Shown here piece after piece: positions 1 through 10,537 of a DNA stretch of 52,173 nucleotides. Both the position numbers and the translations under genes were made by a program. Position 1 is the stretch's first letter. Each line of letters opens with the position of its first letter. The notes under the pieces are model-generated. The model was not told where the DNA came from, searched no databases, and saw only the letters and a program-made list of their open reading frames with translations. The stretch is from Bacteroidota bacterium (GTDB taxonomy: Bacteria > Bacteroidota > Bacteroidia > Chitinophagales > LD1). The stretch lies in NCBI GenBank assembly GCA_947461105.1, contig CANHIG010000003.1, positions 1 through 52,173 on the forward strand, read 5' to 3'.

Positions 1-17
1 GATTTTACATCAGCCAT
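1..17 (-). CDS. 5' end of a gene running off the window (MADVK...), possibly ribosomal protein L7/L12
   Basis: ATG GCT GAT GTA AAA on the minus strand from 17, preceded by an A-rich leader and a consensus promoter. Only 5 codons are visible, so the identity is a guess. Confidence 0.35.
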
Positions 18-88
18 TTTAATATGTATTTATTGGTTTTAAAAGATTTTTTAATCCGCCTTGGAAGCTCCTTTCGGAAAACGGAACG

Positions 89-119
89 CAAATGTAGTAT
101 TATTTTTCAACATTTCAAA
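89..119 (-). promoter_or_regulatory. Bacteroidota sigma70 promoter, TTTG-N19-TACATTTG
   Basis: Minus strand: TTTG at 119-116 and TACATTTG at 96-89 with a 19-nt spacer, an exact consensus match. Confidence 0.7.
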
Positions 120-301
120 TGTGGAATTGCTTTTTAAAGAAAAACAACCAGACGAATCAACTTAAATTAATACAACCTATTGATTATAAATAATTTATGT
201 CTTTTAAACCTCAGTTTCGATATGTTATAAAAACTAATTTGATTTTGCAGCAAAGCAATAATAGCTTTACCTTCACGTTTGAAAACCCAAAAGTAAGAAT
301 A

Positions 302-1105
302 ATGAAAAAATTAATATTTGCGTTGTTTATCACCGCTGCCCCTTTTGCAGGCAAAGCCCAAATAGGCAATTTCGAAGAAGTCGTTTATCTGAAAAACGGT
401 AGCATATACAGAGGAGTGATTGTGGAAGAAATTCCCGGCAAATCCATCAAACTTTTAACTCGTGACCAAAACATCATCGCTTTCCAACTGGATGAGGTAG
501 AAAAGCTTACTAAAGAAAGACCTACTCAAAATTATTTCAAGCAAAATCAGGGAGATGCCGCTCCGCTTCGTGAAAAAACTAAATTCAATACCAAGTATAA
601 ACCGGGTGGCGTGTATTTGCTGGTGGGTTTTAACGGAGGCGCGCACCAGATAGGCGGTGGTGTGGGAATTGAAATGGATTTGGGGTACAAGATTTTTCCG
701 AAGAAAAAGGAATGGAAAAAGAAAGTGATGTGGGGCGGTGATATATTCGGTTTTGCTACCGTACAAGGTTTCCCTTTTGTAGGAACTAACTTTCAGGCAG
801 GAATTAACGGAGGCGCATCTATGGCACTTCGATTTGGCAAAGCAAACTATTTCTATGTGACTCCATACACAGGGCTAAACGTTATTACTGCCTCTCATCG
901 CGATGAATATTATGATGATTACTCAGGAGGCTATGTAAGAAGACAAAGAAGAGATTTTGGAGCAGCCATCCCCATTGGTCTTAAACTGGAGCTTACTTTC
1001 AGAAAGTTCTATTTCGGAAACAACACCAGCCTGGGCGGTTCTATCACCACAAGTGGCGGTGGCGGCTACTTCAGAACAGGTCTTTACCTTGGGGTGAAGT
1101 TCTGA
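302..1105 (+). CDS. Secreted/outer-membrane protein with an N-terminal small beta domain (VYLKNGSIYRGVIVE) and a C-terminal beta-barrel
   Basis: ORF 197..1105; the likely start is 302 (MKKLIFALFITAAPFAGKAQ signal peptide). Gly/aromatic beta-strands end in the barrel-type signature GLYLGVKF. Confidence 0.7.
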   Translation: MKKLIFALFITAAPFAGKAQIGNFEEVVYLKNGSIYRGVIVEEIPGKSIKLLTRDQNIIAFQLDEVEKLTKERPTQNYFKQNQGDAAPLREKTKFNTKYKPGGVYLLVGFNGGAHQIGGGVGIEMDLGYKIFPKKKEWKKKVMWGGDIFGFATVQGFPFVGTNFQAGINGGASMALRFGKANYFYVTPYTGLNVITASHRDEYYDDYSGGYVRRQRRDFGAAIPIGLKLELTFRKFYFGNNTSLGGSITTSGGGGYFRTGLYLGVKF

Positions 1106-1275
1106 GCTGAAACCTTTAGTACAATATCTCAGAATTAGAGTTACACGAGCCATGAAGATTGAGTATGGAAAATATCAATTAGAAAATTTTTTATTTGCTT
1201 TTTTTTATATATTCGTATTAAGTCTGGTGCTTGAAATTCCAAAATCAATTCATTAACCAATAAAAACTAACAACT

Positions 1276-2376
1276 ATGGCTTCTACACCAAATCCATCGC
1301 TTTTAAAGTATGTTAACCCATACACCCCAATTGCTCCAAAGTATTCTGAGGGGCTTAATTCAATTGTTGCCACATTGGCACCTTTATATCCAAACCAAAC
1401 TATTGACGACCTTGTGAATGCAGTTTACACTTATGTTACCACTACATATTCTCAAACACCTAGCCCAATAGAGGAGCAAAATTTTAAGTCATTAATATAT
1501 TCGTTGATAAATGGATATTTAAATTATCAGCTTGCCTACTCCACAAAACAAATGGATTTTATACACAAACTAATTGGAGGTACTCTTGCCAACGGCAATC
1601 CAGAAAATATACTGTGGCACATTTTAGATGTAGAAGAACAAATTGCGCAAAGTAATTTAACTACAATAGAGCAATCACCATTATTATACGCTACAGCTGT
1701 TGGTAAAGCAGCTTACAATTATTGGTCAGCAGTTGTAACTAGTCCAGAATCATGGAATGACTTTATCACATCGTTTACTCCTTCAATTATAAAATTTCCA
1801 TACTGGGTTGCAAGCTCTATGCAGGGTGTTTTAATAGGTATTAACCTGTTAAACTCAGTTGATGACAACATTGAAAAAACCTTACAAACTGTATTTCAGT
1901 TGCAAGGTTTTGAAGCATTAGCCTCTTTATACGGGTCTTTAAGTATTGGTGCAGGAAAGGTGGTATTTAATTGGCAACAGAAAGAAATTTTTGCTCAAAA
2001 AATCAACACAGGTAATGGTCCTGTACCAAACGCAGTAGTTAATATTCGCTTTTTGTGGGGTACCTATCGCGGTCAAAATAGAGGTTGTGAGCCAAGTTGG
2101 GGATTATGCGGCATAGATATTGGTTTTTTACATCCTACAAATGATTCATCTAGTGGGTCTGCACAAATATTAGAAGGCAAATTACATATCCATATAAATG
2201 CTGGAGATGTTCCAGCAAAATATGCAGAACAGATTGCAAGTAAAGTAATACCTGTTGCAAATAATATTCAGCTATCACCAGAAATTTGCAAACAACTTGG
2301 TGTTTGTAGTTATACTATTAATGCCGGGAATTATAATTTCACTTCATGTTGTGACGGCTACAGCTTCATATTCTAA
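1276..2376 (+). CDS. Hypothetical two-domain protein (helical N-domain plus Cys-containing C-domain), no signal peptide
   Basis: 366-aa ORF, A-rich leader before ATG, low GC. The C-domain motif is GCEPSWGLC...LSPEICKQLG...INAGNY. Confidence 0.75.
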   Translation: MASTPNPSLLKYVNPYTPIAPKYSEGLNSIVATLAPLYPNQTIDDLVNAVYTYVTTTYSQTPSPIEEQNFKSLIYSLINGYLNYQLAYSTKQMDFIHKLIGGTLANGNPENILWHILDVEEQIAQSNLTTIEQSPLLYATAVGKAAYNYWSAVVTSPESWNDFITSFTPSIIKFPYWVASSMQGVLIGINLLNSVDDNIEKTLQTVFQLQGFEALASLYGSLSIGAGKVVFNWQQKEIFAQKINTGNGPVPNAVVNIRFLWGTYRGQNRGCEPSWGLCGIDIGFLHPTNDSSSGSAQILEGKLHIHINAGDVPAKYAEQIASKVIPVANNIQLSPEICKQLGVCSYTINAGNYNFTSCCDGYSFIF

Positions 2377-2381
2377 ATTAC

Positions 2382-2954
2382 TTGATTAGATTGAAGAGTT
2401 TGTTAAAAGGAATCCTTAGCATAGTAGCAGTAATTCTACTGCTACTATGTTTAGTTACTGTAATTTTTTATTACGTGACTGGTATAAGCTACTTTGCTAT
2501 AGCTAAAACTTATACAAAAAGTGAAATTGAAGAAATAGCCAAAACTTACAAAAGTTCAGAGGTGTTTTTGATTAGGCCGAAATATTTTATCCAGTACGGG
2601 AAAGGTCATTTTCCAAAGTACAAAATTTATAACCCTTCTGGATTACAGATAAATGTTTATGCTTGTTATGAATCGCTACCCACTTTACCAGTTTTTATCA
2701 AGAAAAAATCAAATGATATTCTAGTTAATCAGACTTTTGAAAACGAGTTATTAAAAAGTAGAAATTTAAATTCAGACAGTATCAACGCACAGAGTACTTT
2801 TACTCAAGGTAAATACAACATGATATTCTATTACAAAAATGCAATGGATAGAATACAAAAAAAACAATTACACAATGTTCTTATCGGTAACCTTGGAGAT
2901 TTCAAAGATAGTTTAAATGTGATTTTTATAAATGTTGACAGAGTTAACTTCTAA
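2382..2954 (+). CDS. Hypothetical membrane-anchored protein, possibly with a degenerate thioredoxin-like C-terminus
   Basis: 190-aa ORF starting 5 nt after the upstream stop, with a strong N-terminal TM helix and a C-terminal YNMIFYY...VIFINVD pattern. Confidence 0.65.
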   Translation: MIRLKSLLKGILSIVAVILLLLCLVTVIFYYVTGISYFAIAKTYTKSEIEEIAKTYKSSEVFLIRPKYFIQYGKGHFPKYKIYNPSGLQINVYACYESLPTLPVFIKKKSNDILVNQTFENELLKSRNLNSDSINAQSTFTQGKYNMIFYYKNAMDRIQKKQLHNVLIGNLGDFKDSLNVIFINVDRVNF

Positions 2955-2970
2955 ACTCATATTCCCAACT

Positions 2971-3012
2971 GTCTGTAGTCTGAAGCAAAGCCATTGCGCT
3001 GTGACTACAGAC
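2971..3012. repeat. Inverted repeat/hairpin (REP-like or terminator) between convergent genes
   Basis: GTCTGTAGTC (2971-2980) and its exact reverse complement GACTACAGAC (3003-3012), with an inner GCAA/TTGC pairing. Confidence 0.6.
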
Positions 3013-3090
3013 TCAAATCAACTAAATCATTAAACCTTCAAATGTCATTTTTTTCCGTAGTCGCCTGCCACTTTACAGATAGAGGCTAAA

Positions 3091-3789
3091 TCAGCATATC
3101 AGCAACAACCTTTTCTGTCCGGTTTTTTCTTTTGGTGCACGGTGCACACATGGAAGCACTTCGCTCTCAGGATGATCAACTGCTAATCGCCATAAGTTTC
3201 CAATGCCTAAGCTGACAGGTTGTGCAGTTGGTTTTGCATTATAGTGTAGGTCAAAGAAATGTTCACTCAAAAATGATTCAAAACCTTCATCCGCTCCGTG
3301 ATATAATTTTTTGAGCTCAGCCCGAATTTCGGGAACAAGCACTTTTTGTATGGCTTCTGAACTAGGCAATATTTCACTCGACTCGCCATAGTAAGTACAT
3401 AAAAAAGTATCGGTTGGTACAGGAGAGCGATCCACATGAAAAGAATACACATCGGTTGGGAAAAACGGGTGGGCATCATCCCGCTCATAACACCTGATTA
3501 CATTCAGGATTGGAGATGCGCCATGCGCTTTCAATAGCTTCAGGTCTTGCAAAATAATTTCTCGGGCAAGCTGTCCCTGCTCACTTAATAGAAGAGAGAG
3601 AAGCTCATCCTCATAAATTTCTGCTATATTTTCGTTTAGTGCTATCTTGTTTACAATTTCAGAAAAATCACCTGTGAGTGTTCGGGTCCAGCAAATTGCA
3701 TTCATTGCTCCGCGAAAAGGAGTGGTAACAAGGTCTTGAAAATTAGAAACACAGTGAATTTGATGTTCAGTTTGAGATAAATCTGTCAT
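3091..3789 (-). CDS. DUF1826-like protein (putative Fe/2OG-type fold)
   Basis: Motifs FHVDRS, LCTYYG, VHRAP and RLLL, recognised as typical of DUF1826. Confidence 0.75.
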   Translation of the reverse strand: MTDLSQTEHQIHCVSNFQDLVTTPFRGAMNAICWTRTLTGDFSEIVNKIALNENIAEIYEDELLSLLLSEQGQLAREIILQDLKLLKAHGASPILNVIRCYERDDAHPFFPTDVYSFHVDRSPVPTDTFLCTYYGESSEILPSSEAIQKVLVPEIRAELKKLYHGADEGFESFLSEHFFDLHYNAKPTAQPVSLGIGNLWRLAVDHPESEVLPCVHRAPKEKTGQKRLLLIC

Positions 3790-3799
3790 AACAATTATT
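3776..3799 (+). repeat. 24-bp direct repeat, left copy (GATAAATCTGTCATAACAATTATT)
   Basis: Identical to 6260-6283. Contains the DUF1826 start codon (CAT at 3787-3789). Confidence 0.95.
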
Positions 3800-3903
3800 G
3801 ATAACGCCCGACCGTGAAAATACTATTCAAACCGGAATAACTGCTATTTTAAAGAGCCTGAGTCGTTATTGTATGTCTTGAAATTAAAACTTAATATTAT
3901 AGT

Positions 3904-6177
3904 ATGAAACAACTTTTAGCTATTGCTCTTCTTTTATTTTTTCGCAGCATATCTGCACAAGAGTATAACCCTGTAGCCCATGAAAAAGCAATAGTTATAA
4001 GCGGTAAAGCCCGCTTTACTGTTTTAACTGATGGTTTGATACGAATGGAATATTAGCCCGATTCCGTTTTTTGTAATCAGGCATCGCTAACTTTCGTGAA
4101 TAGAAACACACGCGTGCCTTCGTTCCAAGTGAAACATGAAAACGGAAAACTTATCATCACTACTTCGCTACTTACCTTAACTTATACTGAAAACAGCAGT
4201 GGGTTTACTTCTAAAAATCTGCGTATTGATTATAAAGATGCTGCCCGCAATTTTAGTTGGAAGCCGGGAGTGAAAGACCACAAAAATCTGAAAGGCACTA
4301 CGCGCACGCTTGATGGAGTGAGTGGCACGTTTAGTTATCAAACCATGAAAAAGATAAAACTGGAAGATGGAATTATTTCGCGCAGCGGCTGGGCTTTAGT
4401 GGATGATTCTGAAAAACCATTGTTTGATAACAGCGAATGGCAATGGGTAGAAGCGCGTAAAAATACTGGGCAGGATTTTTATTTTTTCGGTTACGGAAAC
4501 AACTACAAAAAAGCATTGTTTGATTTTACGCAAGTAGCAGGTAAAATTTCGCTGCCACCTAAATACACCTTCGGTGTTTGGTATTCACGTTACTGGAATT
4601 ACACCGAAGCAGAAATGAAAGACATTGTAAATGGCTACGAGAAAAACGATTTGCCGCTCGATGTACTGGTAGTGGATATGGATTGGCACATCACCGAAAA
4701 ATCTAGCCCGGAAATTTTCAGCCATGCAAATCCAAAACCCAATGGCTGGACAGGTTTTACCTGGGAGAAGAAATATTTTCCCGATTACAAAGGGTTTTTG
4801 AAATGGACAGATGAGAACCACTTGCAAACATGTTTAAACCTTCATCCCGCTGAAGGCGTGCAGGCACATGAAGCTGCTTATGATACTTTTGCAAAAGCCA
4901 TGAATGCTGATACTTCAAAGCACGCTGCCATTCCTTTCGACATTACGAACAAAAAATTTGCAAATAATTATTTCGATGTGTTGCTGCATCCTTATGAAAA
5001 AGCGGGTGTAGATTTCTGGTGGCTGGACTGGCAGCAGTGGGGCGGCACCAACATCAAAGGTGTGAACCCTACTTTCTATTTAAACTATGTGCACTATAGC
5101 GATATGCAGCGGCAAGGCAAGCGTCCGCTTATTTTCCACAGATGGGGCGGCTTGGGTAATCATCGTTATCAAATTGGTTTCAGTGGCGATTACTTTATTA
5201 ATTGGAAAGGCCTCTCGTATCAACCGGAGTTTACTTCAACGGCTGCCAATGTTGGTTTTGGATTCTGGAGCCATGACATTGGAGCGCACATGGGCGCATC
5301 GAAAAAAAATAAGCAAGATGCCGAGCTGTATACGCGCTGGGTACAATGGGGCGCGTTCAGTCCCATCTTCCGCACACATGCCACTAACGATAAAGAAATT
5401 GAAAGACGCATGTGGCTGTATCCGAAAGAAAATTTGGATGCCATGCGAAACGCTTTACAGTTGCGCTACTCGCTTATTCCGTATATCTATACTTATTCGC
5501 GTATGGCGTATGACAGTGGCGTGTCGCTCATTCGCCCTATGTATTATGAATATCCTGACAATGAAAAAGCATACAACGTTCCGCATCAATATTATTTTGG
5601 CAGCAATATGATTGCCGCACCGGTTCACCAAAGCATGAATGGAAATACCACAGCAACACAAACTGTTTGGCTGCCTGAAGGCAACTGGTATGATTACACT
5701 ACACAAGAATTAATAAAAGGCGGAAGAAATTTCACCGCCACATATTCCTTGAATCAAATTCCGTTGTTTGTAAAAGAAGGAAGCATCATACCCTCGCAAA
5801 CAAAAAAGCACCGCATTACCGGCAGCGTTATAGATACACTTACGCTCACCGTTTATGCTGACACCTCTGCCGAATTTAACTTATATGAAGACGATGGAAC
5901 CACAGAAGGATACAAAAGCAATGAATTTTCCTTTACTGCTTTCAGGTATACCAAAAATTTGACAGGAGCTGCGTTTACTATTCAACCGGATGGCAAACAA
6001 TACAGCGGCATGATTACCGAAAGATGCTACGAAATAAATTTGCCGTATGGCACAAAACCAAATTCAGTTACCAGCAACGGAGCAAATACAAATTGGAATT
6101 ATGATGAAGTGACAAAGCAACTCAATGTTCATTTAGCTAAAGACAAAATGGAACAAATCACTGTTCAAATAAACTGA
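3904..6177 (+). pseudogene. GH31 alpha-glycosidase with a DUF5110-like C-terminus, interrupted by an in-frame TAG at 4054-4056
   Basis: From ATG 3904 the frame reads MKQLLAIALLLFFRSISAQEYNPVAH...ARFTVLTDGLIRMEY*PDSVFCNQASLTFVNRN and is continuous with ORF 4096..6177. GH31 motifs DMDWH, FWWLDW, GFSGD, HDIG and LYEDDG are present. Confidence 0.85.
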
Positions 6178-6259
6178 TGTCGTTATTACGATTTTCAGGC
6201 TCTTAGTGTTTTGGATATTCCCTTTTTGCACGAGTGGAAAACACCTCACGCTATCGGAG

Positions 6260-6283
6260 GATAAATCTGTCATAACAATTATT
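6260..6283 (+). repeat. 24-bp direct repeat, right copy
   Basis: Identical to 3776-3799. Lies 40 nt downstream of the speA stop. Confidence 0.95.
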
Positions 6284-6323
6284 TATTCCATCACCAAATT
6301 ATCAGCTCATCACCAAATCGTTC

Positions 6324-7715
6324 TCAGTATCCCAAAATCTTCAACATACTCTCTGCCGTTTGCTCTTCGGCAAAAACTTTGTACGTAAATTTCCCTTTTA
6401 CTTCATCTACCAAAATATGAGGTGGTGAGGGTAAGAGACAATGTTTGATACCGCCATATCCGCTGAGTGTGTCCTGATAAGCTCCAGTATGAAAAAATCC
6501 AATAATGAGGTTTTCCCCCTCCTTAATCTCAGGAAGGTAAACCTGATTGATATGCGCATCGGAATTATAGTAATCGCCCACATCGCAAGTGATACCGCCC
6601 AAATTTACTTGCTTATATTGTCTGTTCCACATATTCACCGGCAGCATGATAAAGCGCTGCGACAAGCCCCAAATGTCGGGCAAATTATTCATCAGCGAGC
6701 CATCAAGCATATACCAGGTTTCGCGGTCATTTTGCTGTTTTTTACCGAGTACGGAAAATATCACTGCCCCCGATTCACCCACTGTATAGCTGCCAAACTC
6801 AGTGTAAATATGCGGTTCTTCCACACCTTCTTCTCCGCACACGTTTTTAATCTGAGTTACAATTTCATTAATCATATACTCATAATCAAAATCAAAAGCC
6901 AATGATTGCTTAATCGGCATTCCTCCGCCAAGATTTATGGAATTCAAATCAGGACAAATCTTTTTGAGTTCAACATATATTTTCAATGCCTTGTGAAACT
7001 CTGTCCAGTAGTAGTTTACATCCTTGATTCCCGTATCTATAAAAAAGTGGAGCATTTTCAATTTATACTTCGGGTTGTCCATTATTTTTTGCTGATAATA
7101 AGACACCACATCATTTGCCCTAATGCCAAGACGCGAAGTGTAGAACTCATACTTTGGCTCCTCCTCTGCTGCTATGCGCATTCCTAATTGAAGCGGCTCA
7201 TCAAGCAGTTGATATTTATCCAACTCTGCAATGTTGTCTAATACCGTGATTACATTTTTGTAGCCTTGTTTGATGGCATTGATAATATTGTCCTGATAAA
7301 TCTGCGTTTTATAGCCATTGCAAATGATTTGAATGTCTTTATTCAGTTTTTTCTTTGTCTCCAGTTTTTTAATCAATTCAAAATCGAAGGCAGAAGACGT
7401 TTCTAAAAAGACTTTGCTCTTTAATGCCTCTTCAAGCACAAATGAAAAGTGAGAACTTTTAGTGCAATAGCAGTAATAATAATTTCCTTTATAATCCAAA
7501 TTGGCAATAGATGAATTAAACAGCCTGCGAGCCTTTTGGATTTGCTGACCAATTTTCGGAAGATAAGTAAGCCGGAGCGGAGTGCCATATTTCTTTACGA
7601 TATCCATCAATGGCAGATTATTAAACAAAAGCGAATCATCTTCCACTTTAAATTCCTTTTGAGGGAAATCGAAAGTCTGCTCAATAAGCTCTTTGTACTT
7701 GGGGTTGTTGTGCAT
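6324..7715 (-). CDS. speA: Arginine decarboxylase (short Bacteroidota type, PLP-dependent)
   Basis: YCYCTKSSH (PLP Lys), FYTSRLGI, INLGGG, TEFG, GGITCD and HTGAYQ motifs. Confidence 0.85.
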   Translation of the reverse strand: MHNNPKYKELIEQTFDFPQKEFKVEDDSLLFNNLPLMDIVKKYGTPLRLTYLPKIGQQIQKARRLFNSSIANLDYKGNYYYCYCTKSSHFSFVLEEALKSKVFLETSSAFDFELIKKLETKKKLNKDIQIICNGYKTQIYQDNIINAIKQGYKNVITVLDNIAELDKYQLLDEPLQLGMRIAAEEEPKYEFYTSRLGIRANDVVSYYQQKIMDNPKYKLKMLHFFIDTGIKDVNYYWTEFHKALKIYVELKKICPDLNSINLGGGMPIKQSLAFDFDYEYMINEIVTQIKNVCGEEGVEEPHIYTEFGSYTVGESGAVIFSVLGKKQQNDRETWYMLDGSLMNNLPDIWGLSQRFIMLPVNMWNRQYKQVNLGGITCDVGDYYNSDAHINQVYLPEIKEGENLIIGFFHTGAYQDTLSGYGGIKHCLLPSPPHILVDEVKGKFTYKVFAEEQTAESMLKILGY

Positions 7716-7776
7716 AGCGTAAAATTAATCCGACACAAATAACGGAAAAAGGCGACACATTTAGTCCAAAAAAATA

Positions 7777-7784
7777 TAAGTTTG
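7777..7784 (+). promoter_or_regulatory. -7 promoter box of argS (TAAGTTTG)
   Basis: Exact TANNTTTG 4 nt before the ATG, implying a very short or leaderless mRNA. Confidence 0.55.
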
Positions 7785-7788
7785 ACCC

Positions 7789-9603
7789 ATGAGTATGATT
7801 AGCATTCAGGAACTATTGAAGCAGGAGGCGCAGAAAGCCTGCAAAAATCTTTTTGGTGAAGAAAGTTTAACGGCTGCTATTAATGTTGGTATTACCAACA
7901 AAGAATTTGAGGGAGACTATACGGTAGTTGTTTTTCCGCTGGTACGCTTTTCAAAACTATCGCCCGAAAAAACCGGTGAAGCTTTGGGCACCTATCTGAA
8001 AGAAAATACTGATTACATCAATGATTTCAATGTGGTAAAAGGATTTCTGAATCTCAGACTCACTGCTGCATTTTGGATAAAAAATCTGGAAGAGCGAAGT
8101 CAGAAAAAAGAATTGACAATATTCTCTGCAAAGAAAGAAAAAGTGTTGCTAGAATACTGCGGTCCAAATACTAACAAGCCTCTGCATATTGGTCACTTAA
8201 GAAATATGTTGTTGGGATTTTCGGTGAGTGAAATCCTGAAAGAAACCGGCTCTGATGTCACTAAAGTAAACATATACAACGACCGCGGAATTGCCATCTG
8301 CAAATCAATGGCGGCTTATATCGAGCGTGGCAATGGCGAAACTCCTGAAAGCAGCGGAATCAAAGGTGACCATTTTGTGGGCGATTATTATGTGATGTTC
8401 GGGAGAATTGTAGAAGAACAACTTCGTGCAAAATACAAGGTAAGCGGAGAAGAGAATGTGTTTAAAGCTATTGGAAAAGATCGTGAAATAGCAGAACAGG
8501 AAACTCCGATTTTCGAACTTGCGAAAAAACTTTTATTACAATGGGAAGCCAATGATGAATATGCTGTAAACCTATGGAAACGAATGAACGGCTGGGTTTA
8601 TGATGGTTTCAAAAAAACCTTTGATGTGCTCGGAGTGGATTTTGAAAAAGATTATTTCGAAAGCGAAACTTACAAGCTCGGTAAAGACATTATTGATGAA
8701 GGTGTTGCAAAGCAAGTGATATACAAACGAGTCGATGATGCAATGGCAATAGACTTGACTGCTGATGGCTTGGATGAAAAGGTATTACTGCGCAGTGACG
8801 GCACTTCTATTTATATAACTCAGGACTTGGGTACCGCAAAGCTTCGCCACGATGAATTTAAGATGGACAAGATGATTTATGTGGTGGCTAACGAGCAGGA
8901 CTATCACTTTAAAGTTTTGAAACTTGCCTTACAAAAACTCGGCAAGAAATGGGCTGATGGAATTTATCATTTGTCCTATGCATTAGTTGAATCACCAACA
9001 GGTCGGTTCAAATCTCGTGAAGGCAAAACAGCTGATGCTGATGATTTGATTGCAGAAGTTTTGCGCATTGCAGAAGAAAAAACAAAAGAGCACGGAAAGA
9101 TTGAAGACTTCACTGCTGAAGATGCACAGGCGCTTTATAAAACAATTGGATTAGGTGCATTGAAATTTTTTATTCTTCGTGTAAATCCGTTTAAGAAAAT
9201 AATTTTCAATCCTGAAGAATCAATAGACTTCCACGGACAAACAGGGCCCTTTATTCAATATACTCATGCAAGGATTAAATCTGTAATCAGAAAAGCAAAT
9301 ATTGCTTCGTTGACTTTGAATCAACAAACCGAGCTTAGTGAAACGGAACGCCAAATCATTCAGCAGTTGAGTGAATTTGAAAATATATTGATTGATGCTG
9401 CAGCTAAATATGATCCTTCTGAAGTAGCCAACTATTTGTACAATCTATCCAAGCTATACAATAAGTTCTACAATGAATCACCTATAATAGCTGCTAAATC
9501 AGAAGATGAAAAAACACTGAGAATTGCGCTATCATCAATCACTGCTCGCACCATTGCCAAAGGCATGAAATTATTGGGAATAGAGGTTCCTGAGAAGATG
9601 TAA
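7789..9603 (+). CDS. argS: Arginine--tRNA ligase
   Basis: PNTNKPLHIGH (HIGH motif), FKSREG, GPFIQYTHARI and C-terminal LLGIEVPEKM. Confidence 0.97.
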   Translation: MSMISIQELLKQEAQKACKNLFGEESLTAAINVGITNKEFEGDYTVVVFPLVRFSKLSPEKTGEALGTYLKENTDYINDFNVVKGFLNLRLTAAFWIKNLEERSQKKELTIFSAKKEKVLLEYCGPNTNKPLHIGHLRNMLLGFSVSEILKETGSDVTKVNIYNDRGIAICKSMAAYIERGNGETPESSGIKGDHFVGDYYVMFGRIVEEQLRAKYKVSGEENVFKAIGKDREIAEQETPIFELAKKLLLQWEANDEYAVNLWKRMNGWVYDGFKKTFDVLGVDFEKDYFESETYKLGKDIIDEGVAKQVIYKRVDDAMAIDLTADGLDEKVLLRSDGTSIYITQDLGTAKLRHDEFKMDKMIYVVANEQDYHFKVLKLALQKLGKKWADGIYHLSYALVESPTGRFKSREGKTADADDLIAEVLRIAEEKTKEHGKIEDFTAEDAQALYKTIGLGALKFFILRVNPFKKIIFNPEESIDFHGQTGPFIQYTHARIKSVIRKANIASLTLNQQTELSETERQIIQQLSEFENILIDAAAKYDPSEVANYLYNLSKLYNKFYNESPIIAAKSEDEKTLRIALSSITARTIAKGMKLLGIEVPEKM

Positions 9604-9652
9604 ATTTCTCTTGCTCCCGCTCCTTGCAAGGAGCGGGAGCAAGAGAAATTTA
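9601..9652. terminator. Perfect 52-bp palindrome, likely a bidirectional terminator or REP-like element
   Basis: TAAATTTCTCTTGCTCCCGCTCCTTG followed directly by its reverse complement. Spans both convergent stop codons. Confidence 0.75.
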
Positions 9653-10537
9653 TTTTAAAAACCGCTCCGAAACCACCAAATCTTTTGAATCTTTACTATG
9701 TTTATAAAATCCTTCGCCAGATTTTACTCCGAGTCTTCCGGCTGTAACCATATTAACCAATAACGGACAAGGCGCATATTTAGGATTTCCAAAACCATCA
9801 TGCAATACGCGCATAATCGCAAGGCAAACATCTAATCCTATGAAATCTGCTAATTGTAAAGGCCCCATTGGATGCGCCATACCGAGTTTCATTACAGTAT
9901 CAATTTCATAAACTCCTGCCACTCCCTCATACAAAGAATAAACGGCTTCATTAATCATCGGCATCAGAATTCTGTTTGCCACAAAGCCCGGATAATCGTT
10001 AACCTCTACAGGAACTTTCCCAATTTGTTTAGACAACTCCATAATGGTATTGCAAACTTCATTTGAAGTAGCATAACCACGAATCACCTCTATCAGCTTC
10101 ATCACCGGAACAGGATTCATAAAGTGCATTCCGATTACTTTGTCGGCTCGTTTGGTAGCAGCTGCAATCTTAGTAATAGAAATAGAACTTGTATTAGATG
10201 ACAGAATAGTTTCCGGCTTACATATTCCATCTAACTGTTTGAAAAGGCTCAACTTAATTGTTTCGTTCTCCGTAGCAGCTTCTACAACCAAATCTGCTGC
10301 AGCAGCACTTTTAAGCTCCGTATTTTTAGAAAGTCTGGAAAGTGTTTCTGCCTTTTGTGTTTCGCTTAATGCACCTTTTGCCACTTGCCTGTCAAGATTC
10401 TTATCAATAGTCTGCAACGCCTTATCTAAAGCTGCTTCTGAAATATCTATAATCGTTGTATCATATCCATTCAGTGCAAAAACATGCGCAATGCCGTTTC
10501 CCATTGTCCCTGCTCCTATTACCGCTATTTTCTTCAT
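9650..10537 (-). CDS. hbd: 3-hydroxybutyryl-CoA dehydrogenase
   Basis: GAGTMG Rossmann motif, SNTSS, GMHFMNP and HPMGPLQLADFIGLD. Confidence 0.93.
   Translation of the reverse strand: MKKIAVIGAGTMGNGIAHVFALNGYDTTIIDISEAALDKALQTIDKNLDRQVAKGALSETQKAETLSRLSKNTELKSAAAADLVVEAATENETIKLSLFKQLDGICKPETILSSNTSSISITKIAAATKRADKVIGMHFMNPVPVMKLIEVIRGYATSNEVCNTIMELSKQIGKVPVEVNDYPGFVANRILMPMINEAVYSLYEGVAGVYEIDTVMKLGMAHPMGPLQLADFIGLDVCLAIMRVLHDGFGNPKYAPCPLLVNMVTAGRLGVKSGEGFYKHSKDSKDLVVSERFLK

Follow-up and report, generated by a model that had tools for sequence, protein, structure and literature searches.

Introduction

Cis-mobilisable elements, Xer-dependent elements and pdif modules encode no recombinase themselves, and their cargo of one or a few genes lies between repeats of 20-30 bp. 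In Escherichia coli experiments with DNA that was homologous at one end, 56 of 60 clones are reported as single crossovers of a re-circularised, trimmed molecule, and in those the homology that remained, 109-950 bp, came to stand as a duplication on either side of the insert (PMC3240628). Additionally, a three-species comparison reports flanking direct repeats, mostly shorter than 30 bp, for approximately 10% of small variable segments (PMC2884548). Here we describe a perfect 24-bp direct repeat, GATAAATCTGTCATAACAATTATT, in a 52,173-nt stretch of DNA from an uncultured freshwater Bacteroidota bacterium (GenBank assembly GCA_947461105.1, contig CANHIG010000003.1; hereafter the window, which is the entire contig C3). 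One copy of the repeat forms the 5' end of a DUF1826-family gene and the other lies behind a speA-like decarboxylase gene; the only long open reading frame (ORF) between the copies encodes a glycoside hydrolase of family GH31. We tentatively read the repeat as a one-off scar of ordinary host recombination at the gain of the GH31 gene, rather than as an attachment (att) site or a target-site duplication, and assign this reading a probability of roughly 0.4.

The bracketed unit shares with the att- or dif-flanked elements that are moved in trans the lack of its own recombinase, a single cargo and a repeat of similar length. Unlike those elements, which recur widely and have recognisable binding arms, the unit is a singleton without an evident arm-spacer-arm structure, and its left end corresponds to the leader of the target. 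The locus is also like the products of Campbell-type or homology-facilitated illegitimate recombination described in PMC3240628, in which a shared stretch becomes a direct repeat around a foreign insert; as in the integrants reported there, no dedicated recombinase, inverted repeats or multiple copies are seen, and one end of the insert is related to the neighbourhood of the target. It differs from them in that 24 bp are shared here, compared with 109-950 bp, and in that the donor and the empty site are unobserved here. The hosts also differ, and the recombination thresholds of E. coli may not be those of this bacterium. Like the segments compared in PMC2884548, the locus is strain-variable, has direct repeats shorter than 30 bp, no known mobile element and diverged patches, whereas the segments of that study are mostly shorter than 500 bp with repeats that are read there as deletion substrates, and here a whole 2.3-kb gene is bracketed by a repeat that includes a gene start. 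The structure is best grouped with the variable segments between short repeats that strain comparisons have revealed.

Results

The repeat is exact, unique and real

The features that surround the repeat, including the public sequencing runs (X1, X4 and X8) in which copy 2 is bridged, are the following.

3091..3789, minus strand: DUF1826-family gene, 232 aa (Pfam PF08856, E 1.2e-5, above the cut-off), the sole copy found in the assembly
3776..3799: repeat copy 1, apparently the native DUF1826 5' end (10 nt of leader, ATG and 11 further coding nt in minus-strand reading), exact match
3800..3903: intergenic region between DUF1826 and GH31, whose first ~60 nt correspond to the conserved upstream region of DUF1826
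3904..6177, plus strand: GH31 glycoside hydrolase gene, 757 codons (PF01055, PF21365, PF17137), with a signal-peptide-like N-terminus
6178..6259: GH31 3' flank, the inner right end of the bracketed segment, with no other copy in the assembly and no significant fold
6260..6283: repeat copy 2, an apparent orphan between the GH31 3' flank and the speA 3' flank, exact match, bridged in X1, X4 and X8
6284..6323: speA 3' flank, 40 nt, in which CATCACCAAAT occurs twice (6289-6299 and 6308-6318)
6324..7715, minus strand: speA-like decarboxylase gene, 463 aa, dependent on pyridoxal phosphate (Pfam PF02784 and PF00278)

The 24-mer has two exact sites in the window, at 3776-3799 and 6260-6283, both on the plus strand with 0 mismatches; no third site is present in the window at up to three mismatches, and these are its only two sites in the whole 2.51-Mb assembly. 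The copy-to-copy spacing is 2484 bp and the insert measures 2460 bp. Near-identity extends over 26 of 27 positions (3776-3802 versus 6260-6286) and stops sharply on both sides, and gapped local alignments of the flanks (the left flank of copy 1 with that of copy 2, and likewise the right flanks) score no better than shuffles. Two matches are reached in none of 100 dinucleotide shuffles, which places the pair far above chance, and the pair is the longest among the exact direct repeats of the assembly that are spaced 1-20 kb apart, with runners-up of 21 nt. A chance origin of the repeat is ruled out by the shuffles together with this ranking. The repeat thus stands as the first-pass annotation of this DNA had given it, exact and with a period of 2484 bp.

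The assembly, binned from a metagenome, totals 2.51 Mb in 197 contigs, with a completeness of 87.65% and a contamination of 3.12%. Eleven public lake or freshwater runs contain the stretch, and the Logan contigs of four of them were compared with positions 1-10000 of the window; these contigs come from a different assembler that uses 31-letter words, longer than the repeat, and that drops rare variants. In X1, which may be the source sample, a single contig of 5044 nt corresponds to 3403-8446 with 1 difference and bridges both copies. X4 has contigs that correspond to 3773-4743 and to 4742-6825, both with 0 differences. The X8 sample, which dates from a later year, gives contigs for 3731-4142, with 6 differences, and for 5154-7139, with 10 differences as well as 2 small gaps. 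Contig depth is even over the 2484-bp unit. The 24-bp repeat is therefore real DNA, reproduced in contigs of three lake samples, and a misassembly, a possibility that the first-pass annotation had raised, is ruled out by independent contigs that bridge both copies. In a further run, X9, one contig with a depth of 2.4 stops exactly at 6283, from which nothing is drawn.

Copy 1 lies in apparently native DUF1826 DNA

On the minus strand, copy 1 reads AATAATTGTT ATG ACA GAT TTA TC, that is, 10 nt of leader followed by M-T-D-L of DUF1826, in agreement with the earlier observation that the repeat includes the ATG and first codons of this gene. The start ATGA(C/T)(A/T)GATTT(A/G)TC is kept in the DUF1826 genes of relatives, to which the identity is 57-74% in the relatives' genomes and up to 83% in metagenome contigs. 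In a literature listing, three papers mention DUF1826, and two of these deal with zinc homeostasis. The DNA just inside copy 1 (3800-3860, on the DUF1826 sense strand) has 17 nt in common with G006, the closest same-genus relative, of which 16 are identical with an exact run of 14 nt, at the matching position. The score of the 3800-3860 alignment is 29, compared with a maximum of 28 for 40 shuffled queries that were each run against all 89 upstream regions. Three further same-genus genomes (G001, G003 and G005) align over the same leader motif, and an alignment of five genomes is collinear from the ATG through the 10-nt leader and straight over the 3799/3800 boundary.

Because 3800-3860 is collinear with the DUF1826 upstream DNA of the same genus, it would be the leader of DUF1826 itself and not the arm of an element. 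Copy 1 thus appears to lie in native DUF1826 DNA on both sides, with a start and a leader that look uninterrupted. An element inserted at the DUF1826 start would be expected to place foreign DNA just inside copy 1, and the DNA found there is not foreign. An insertion that duplicates and restores the DUF1826 start, as the first-pass annotation had proposed, is not supported, given a seemingly native copy 1 and a leader that continues over 3799/3800.

An upstream motif close to CAAATGATTTTATAC is present at many of the metagenome DUF1826 loci (L091-L170), approximately 14-16 nt before the ATG, and the window and the same-genus genomes have a variant of this CAAATGATTTTATAC-like motif 11-24 nt before the ATG. 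The motif is a candidate conserved promoter or operator of the DUF1826 family.

Copy 2 resembles an orphan

Judged by its sequence, copy 2 is an orphan, neither side of which resembles the corresponding flank of copy 1. Forty nt separate the end of copy 2 from the stop codon of the speA-like gene (6324-6326), which is on the same strand as DUF1826. This stretch, 6284-6323, shows no similarity to DUF1826 upstream regions, as the top score of 19 is reached by 38 of the 40 shuffled-query maxima. Inspection of 21 relatives shows no conservation of the speA 3' flank, and their flanks have nothing in common with 6284-6323. A decayed second copy of DUF1826 at copy 2 is rejected, as the similarity ends at 24-27 nt on both sides. 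Nor is there a signal for a structured RNA or terminator between GH31 and speA, with fold z-scores of -0.36 and +0.68 and no terminator-like site. The speA-like gene is 90% identical to same-genus genes; its best NCBIfam matches are arginine decarboxylase models, below their cut-offs.

The two CATCACCAAAT sites in the speA 3' flank are 19 nt apart, and in one relative (G019), speA is followed by a similar stretch that is rich in GTGATGAG. Additionally, a minus-strand ORF of 46 codons (6133-6273) starts at copy 2 with MTDLS and overlaps the 3' end of GH31 in antisense orientation; the duplication probably gave rise to it incidentally.

Few hallmarks of a mobile element are present

No terminal inverted repeat is found at 3800 or 6259, and inspection of the 24-mer by eye reveals nothing convincing in the way of an arm-spacer-arm or dif-like structure. 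The assembly, at its 87.65% completeness, holds no other copy of either arm, and hence none with its own duplication or a linked recombinase, for which the first-pass annotation had proposed to look. The 24-mer is absent at up to three mismatches from the other 249 of 254 fetched loci, and none of 99 DUF1826 loci (a few of them from the same genomes) repeats its own start 24-mer at up to four mismatches. The 52-kb contig encodes no tyrosine recombinase (PF00589), for which matches occur only on contigs C47, C79, C66 and C23; serine recombinases and transposases were not searched genome-wide. Comparison of the unit with plasmid and phage collections gives no match, by which known plasmid or phage DNA is ruled out. 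The contigs of the four runs, which drop rare variants, contain neither a joint that skips 3800-6283 nor one that runs from 6259 back to 3776, and so give no sign of the excision junctions or the 2484-bp circle that had been envisaged for a mobile unit, although in such contigs this absence means little.

Of the features of an att-flanked integrative element, the direct repeats are present, and a recombinase inside or adjacent to the unit or demonstrable in trans, foreign ends and recurrence are absent. Of those of transposons, insertion sequences or miniature inverted-repeat transposable elements, neither abutting terminal inverted repeats nor a transposase or multiple copies are seen. One feature of a host single crossover is present, in that the repeat consists of the DUF1826 5' end and is adjoined by 60 nt of DUF1826-type leader.

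Two short word pairs lie at the inner ends around the GH31 ORF. AAGAGCCTGA at 3852-3861 recurs inverted at 6195-6204, and GTCGTTATT at 3862-3870 recurs in direct orientation at 6179-6187. The inverted pair of 10 nt is 52-55 nt inside the ends, and its 10-mer occurs 12 times in the assembly; together with the direct pair of 9 nt, the range is 52-80 nt inside. Each is an ordinary word, and by a rough estimate their joint occurrence is unlikely by chance. A repeated intergenic element is ruled out, since the arms are unique and the shared 10-mer and 9-mer are ordinary in the genome.

The GH31 gene is a recent addition that carries a stop codon

The TIM-barrel and C-terminal domains of GH31 are present, with E-values of 4e-61 for PF01055, 4e-24 for PF21365 and 3.4e-16 for PF17137. 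A search of six same-genus genomes, one of them only 68% complete, gives no ortholog, and the best matches there are to a paralog of 25-27% identity. Five genomes from two other genera of the family have orthologs, with 61-69% identity, the closest proteins in a large collection are 80-82% identical, and several homologs at approximately 60-65% identity carry the source label Chitinophagales. The GC content of the bracketed unit is 41.2%, compared with 37.9% for the genome, which is the 94th percentile of 926 windows. By these comparisons, the GH31-bearing segment is an addition in this lineage. The first-pass annotation had come to the same view of the DNA between the copies, and its statement that no integrase or transposase is encoded there holds, with GH31 as the only long ORF.

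The GH31 frame is interrupted by a single in-frame TAG at 4054-4056 (codon 51) and is otherwise intact; at this position, four of five orthologs have Ser and one has Ala. Identity to the homolog of 80% overall identity is 49/63 before residue 65, the internal restart codon, and 555/693 after it. The identity is thus equal on either side of the restart codon, which suggests that the nonsense change is recent. The X1 and X4 contigs show no difference at the TAG, and a truncated product of 693 aa is on record from two contigs, one of which is 182 kb long; the TAG is not a read error of this bin. The gene may be either a fresh pseudogene or a source of protein restarted at GTG 4096 without the signal peptide.

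The repeat lies in a strain-variable islet

Two further features to the left of DUF1826 define the wider locus.

197..1105, plus strand: gene of 302 aa, homologs of which adjoin speA in same-genus genomes; left border of the islet
1112..3088, plus strand: two family-less ORFs (1276-2376 and 2382-2954), the second variable piece of the islet, with a GC content of 33.2% (1.5th percentile of the genome)

In four same-genus genomes (G001, G003, G005 and G006), speA lies between argS and a homolog of the 197-1105 gene; in tblastn searches, these homologs are 37-56% identical and end 2 to ~660 nt from the speA stop. No such homolog is found in G004, within the 1.2 kb that extend beyond speA, and the sixth same-genus locus is truncated. 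In the same four genomes DUF1826 lies elsewhere, in G001 at 200 kb from speA on the same contig, and its neighbours vary between same-genus genomes. Because speA abuts a 197-1105-like gene in four same-genus genomes, the whole 5.2 kb of 1106-6323 is a lineage-specific, strain-variable islet, whose content is the two family-less ORFs, DUF1826 and GH31. The family-less ORFs encode 366 aa (with a Cys-rich C-terminus) and 190 aa, for which no Pfam, NCBIfam or PHROG family is found.

Differences between strains are observed at several points. An X8 contig that is approximately 90-92% identical to the window joins 1111 to 3089 with 38 other letters between, and thus is without both family-less ORFs. 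X4 contains a DUF1826 allele with 34 differences in 400 nt, which is identical to the window from 3773 onward; its diverged patch, 3433-3772, lies between the window-identical 30-mers 3403-3432 and 3773-3802, and its right edge is 3 nt before copy 1. We could not tell whether this edge at 3773 is a coincidence or a forced crossover site. Additionally, 10 changes and 2 indels are tightly clustered at 6065-6192 in X8. Taken as a whole, the islet varies between strains and is prone to recombination.

Two other irregularities were noted in the islet and at its border. Within 190 nt of the 197-1105 gene (343-532), contigs of X1, X8 and X9 have the same 11-14 substitutions and X4 is like the window; these substitutions look like a recombination patch. 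At 3341-3674, the X8 depth rises several-fold (55.7 of 61.2 at 3406), with loose ends at 3365 and 3672: in this sample, a much more abundant organism has approximately 300 nt of DUF1826 in common with the window, with an identity of at least 88%, and its sequence departs from the window to the left and right of them.

Discussion

Host recombination as the origin of the repeat

Under any integration model, the DUF1826 body, the 24-mer, 6284 onward and speA would once have been contiguous, and the incoming DNA would have held the 24-mer, a DUF1826-type leader, GH31 and the GH31 3' flank. In the host-recombination reading, the incoming DNA would come from a relative with GH31 beside DUF1826, and the fragment would end with the native DUF1826 upstream region and only the first 14 nt of the gene. 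The fragment may then have re-circularised and undergone one crossover with the resident DUF1826 5' end, in the Campbell manner; alternatively, a homologous anchor may have been combined with an illegitimate end-join at the DUF1826 5' end. The recipient before the event would have had the DUF1826 body, the 24-mer, 6284 onward and speA as one contiguous run, and if the partners shared only 24 bp, this stretch would become duplicated around the 2460-bp insert. We infer the donor arrangement, the prior speA-DUF1826 arrangement of the recipient and the crossover.

The DNA inside copy 1 bears directly on this reading, as a homology-driven insertion predicts a DUF1826-type leader there and an unrelated element arm does not. 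The perfect identity over 24 nt, with abrupt ends and no similarity of the flanks, favours a recombination scar. The uniqueness of the event, the lack of a nearby recombinase, the recombination-prone islet and the GC content of the unit at the 94th percentile favour it as well. The E. coli integrants of PMC3240628 and the repeat-flanked segments of PMC2884548 serve as precedents.

Several observations weigh against this reading. The proteins DUF1826, speA and GH31 were used to search 40 related genomes, with 12 larger flanks fetched, and further scans covered metagenome contigs with DUF1826 and species-representative genomes with GH31; all of these relatives are distant, with at most 83% amino-acid identity in DUF1826 and at most 69% in GH31 where context is available. 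Neither the donor nor the recipient arrangement is present in any of them. None of 15 related genomes, 80 metagenome DUF1826 loci or the larger flanks has DUF1826 adjacent to speA, and DUF1826 is beside GH31 at none of 95 DUF1826 loci and none of 85 GH31 loci (five of the latter judged from contig positions). No speA or GH31 lies near DUF1826 at the 80 metagenome loci, and no DUF1826 or speA lies near GH31 at 80 GH31 loci. In the same genus, speA adjoins a 197-1105-like gene and not DUF1826, which makes the recipient state itself a derived and unobserved one. The reading also needs two events, the placement of DUF1826 with 10 nt of leader behind speA and then the arrival of GH31, where a template switch (below) needs one. 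Finally, 24 bp is at or below the RecA-dependent threshold of ~30 bp that is given for E. coli (PMC2884548, citing Shen and Huang 1986), and the duplications in the reported experiments measure at least 109 bp (PMC3240628).

The same comparison bears on the first-pass annotation, which had taken speA and DUF1826 for an ancestral operon. As far as the data allow, the two genes are never adjacent, and no relative with an empty speA-DUF1826 site is found among the 15 genomes and 80 metagenome loci. The arrangement is apparently not an ancestral operon of the genus and would be at most a short-lived intermediate.

Alternative explanations

Templated insertions from nearby sequence at rearrangement joints are known from template-switch amplification models in E. 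coli, and the main rival is a filler of this kind, which we regard as possible although rather unlikely. A block of DUF1826, leader, GH31 and 3' flank would have been put between the 197-1105-like gene and speA in one event; at the right joint, the polymerase would have switched to a template 2.46 kb back, made a 24-nt copy of the DUF1826 start and resumed in the speA flank, so that copy 2 would be a templated insertion with two non-native sides. A single event suffices, and the apparently native surroundings of copy 1, together with copy 2 flanks that are unlike those of DUF1826, agree with it. In the same genus a 197-1105-like gene is beside speA, so DUF1826 and GH31 may have arrived together, and the smallest islet seen has DUF1826 and apparently GH31 (in X8, on the contig that joins 1111 to 3089 and on other contigs, respectively, with none linking them). 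However, the switch points show no microhomology (3775 A versus 6259 G; 3800 G versus 6284 T), no donor with DUF1826 beside GH31 is found, and the literature on recombination mechanisms yielded no bacterial precedent in a search that was not aimed at this mechanism.

A further and improbable explanation is a recombinase-less cassette of 2484 bp that is mobilised in trans, with the 24-mer as the attL/attR core, and that carries a replacement start and leader for its target. This would account for a perfect direct repeat of att-core length around a single cargo gene that is missing from the same-genus genomes searched, and for a repeat that leaves the target DUF1826 ORF intact; the unit might have captured its DUF1826-like leader as a substitute for the upstream DNA of the target, and tyrosine recombinases encoded elsewhere in the assembly could, in principle, work in trans. 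The diverged DUF1826 allele that is identical to the window from 3773, 3 nt before the repeat, also has the look of a boundary, but the X8 DNA to the right of copy 2 is near-identical too, which leaves the boundary at 3773 without a counterpart. The non-autonomous, trans-mobilised element of the first-pass annotation is likewise not supported, as its left "arm" corresponds to the DUF1826 leader, the contig has no tyrosine recombinase match and the unit is a singleton, with no second unit or end in the assembly. No convincing inverted-repeat arms are seen in the 24-mer by eye, where no statistical test was applied. No empty site is found among the relatives examined, no contig of the four runs skips the unit, none of the 99 DUF1826 loci has a duplicated start, and the plasmid and phage collections give no match. 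That a chromosomal recombinase moves such a cassette in trans into the first DUF1826 codons, with the start and leader of the cassette keeping the gene expressed, seems to us quite improbable; if true, the cassette would be a 5'-end-targeting counterpart of the elements that integrate into the 3' ends of tRNA genes. Long target-site duplications are known from IS1634 in Mycoplasma (tens to hundreds of bp) and from casposons (14-15 bp), and cuts staggered by 24 nt, made by a transposase or Cas1-like integrase acting in trans, would likewise give a perfect direct repeat around a discrete segment. This explanation is very improbable here: terminal inverted repeats are lacking, the sole inverted pair being 10 nt long and 52-55 nt inside (3852-3861 and 6195-6204), the segment occurs once and encodes no transposase, and its left end appears to be the leader of DUF1826 itself. 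An artefact of assembly or binning, which would have joined two strains at a shared 24-mer, is scarcely credible; the bin is fragmented (197 contigs, 3.12% contamination) and co-occurring strains exist, but contigs built with 31-letter words span both copies in X1, X4 and X8, depth is even, and the truncated GH31 is found on a 182-kb contig.

Meaning of the repeat

The locus calls for caution in one respect, as a perfect direct repeat of att length with a gene start in it does not by itself identify an integrative element. What decides here is the origin of the DNA just inside the repeat, foreign or belonging to the target itself. In biological terms the stakes are modest: the unit brought in an ordinary glycosidase gene, already inactivated. 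Slippage or recombination between the two 24-bp copies could remove GH31 precisely, and DUF1826 would then stand 50 nt behind speA; the unit has the look of a gene that was gained recently and is now on the way to being lost. If the host-recombination reading is right, homology as short as 24 bp marks the joint, and the locus would be a natural example of the entry, and possibly the exit, of a single gene without mobile-element machinery in an uncultured freshwater Bacteroidota bacterium with a small genome.

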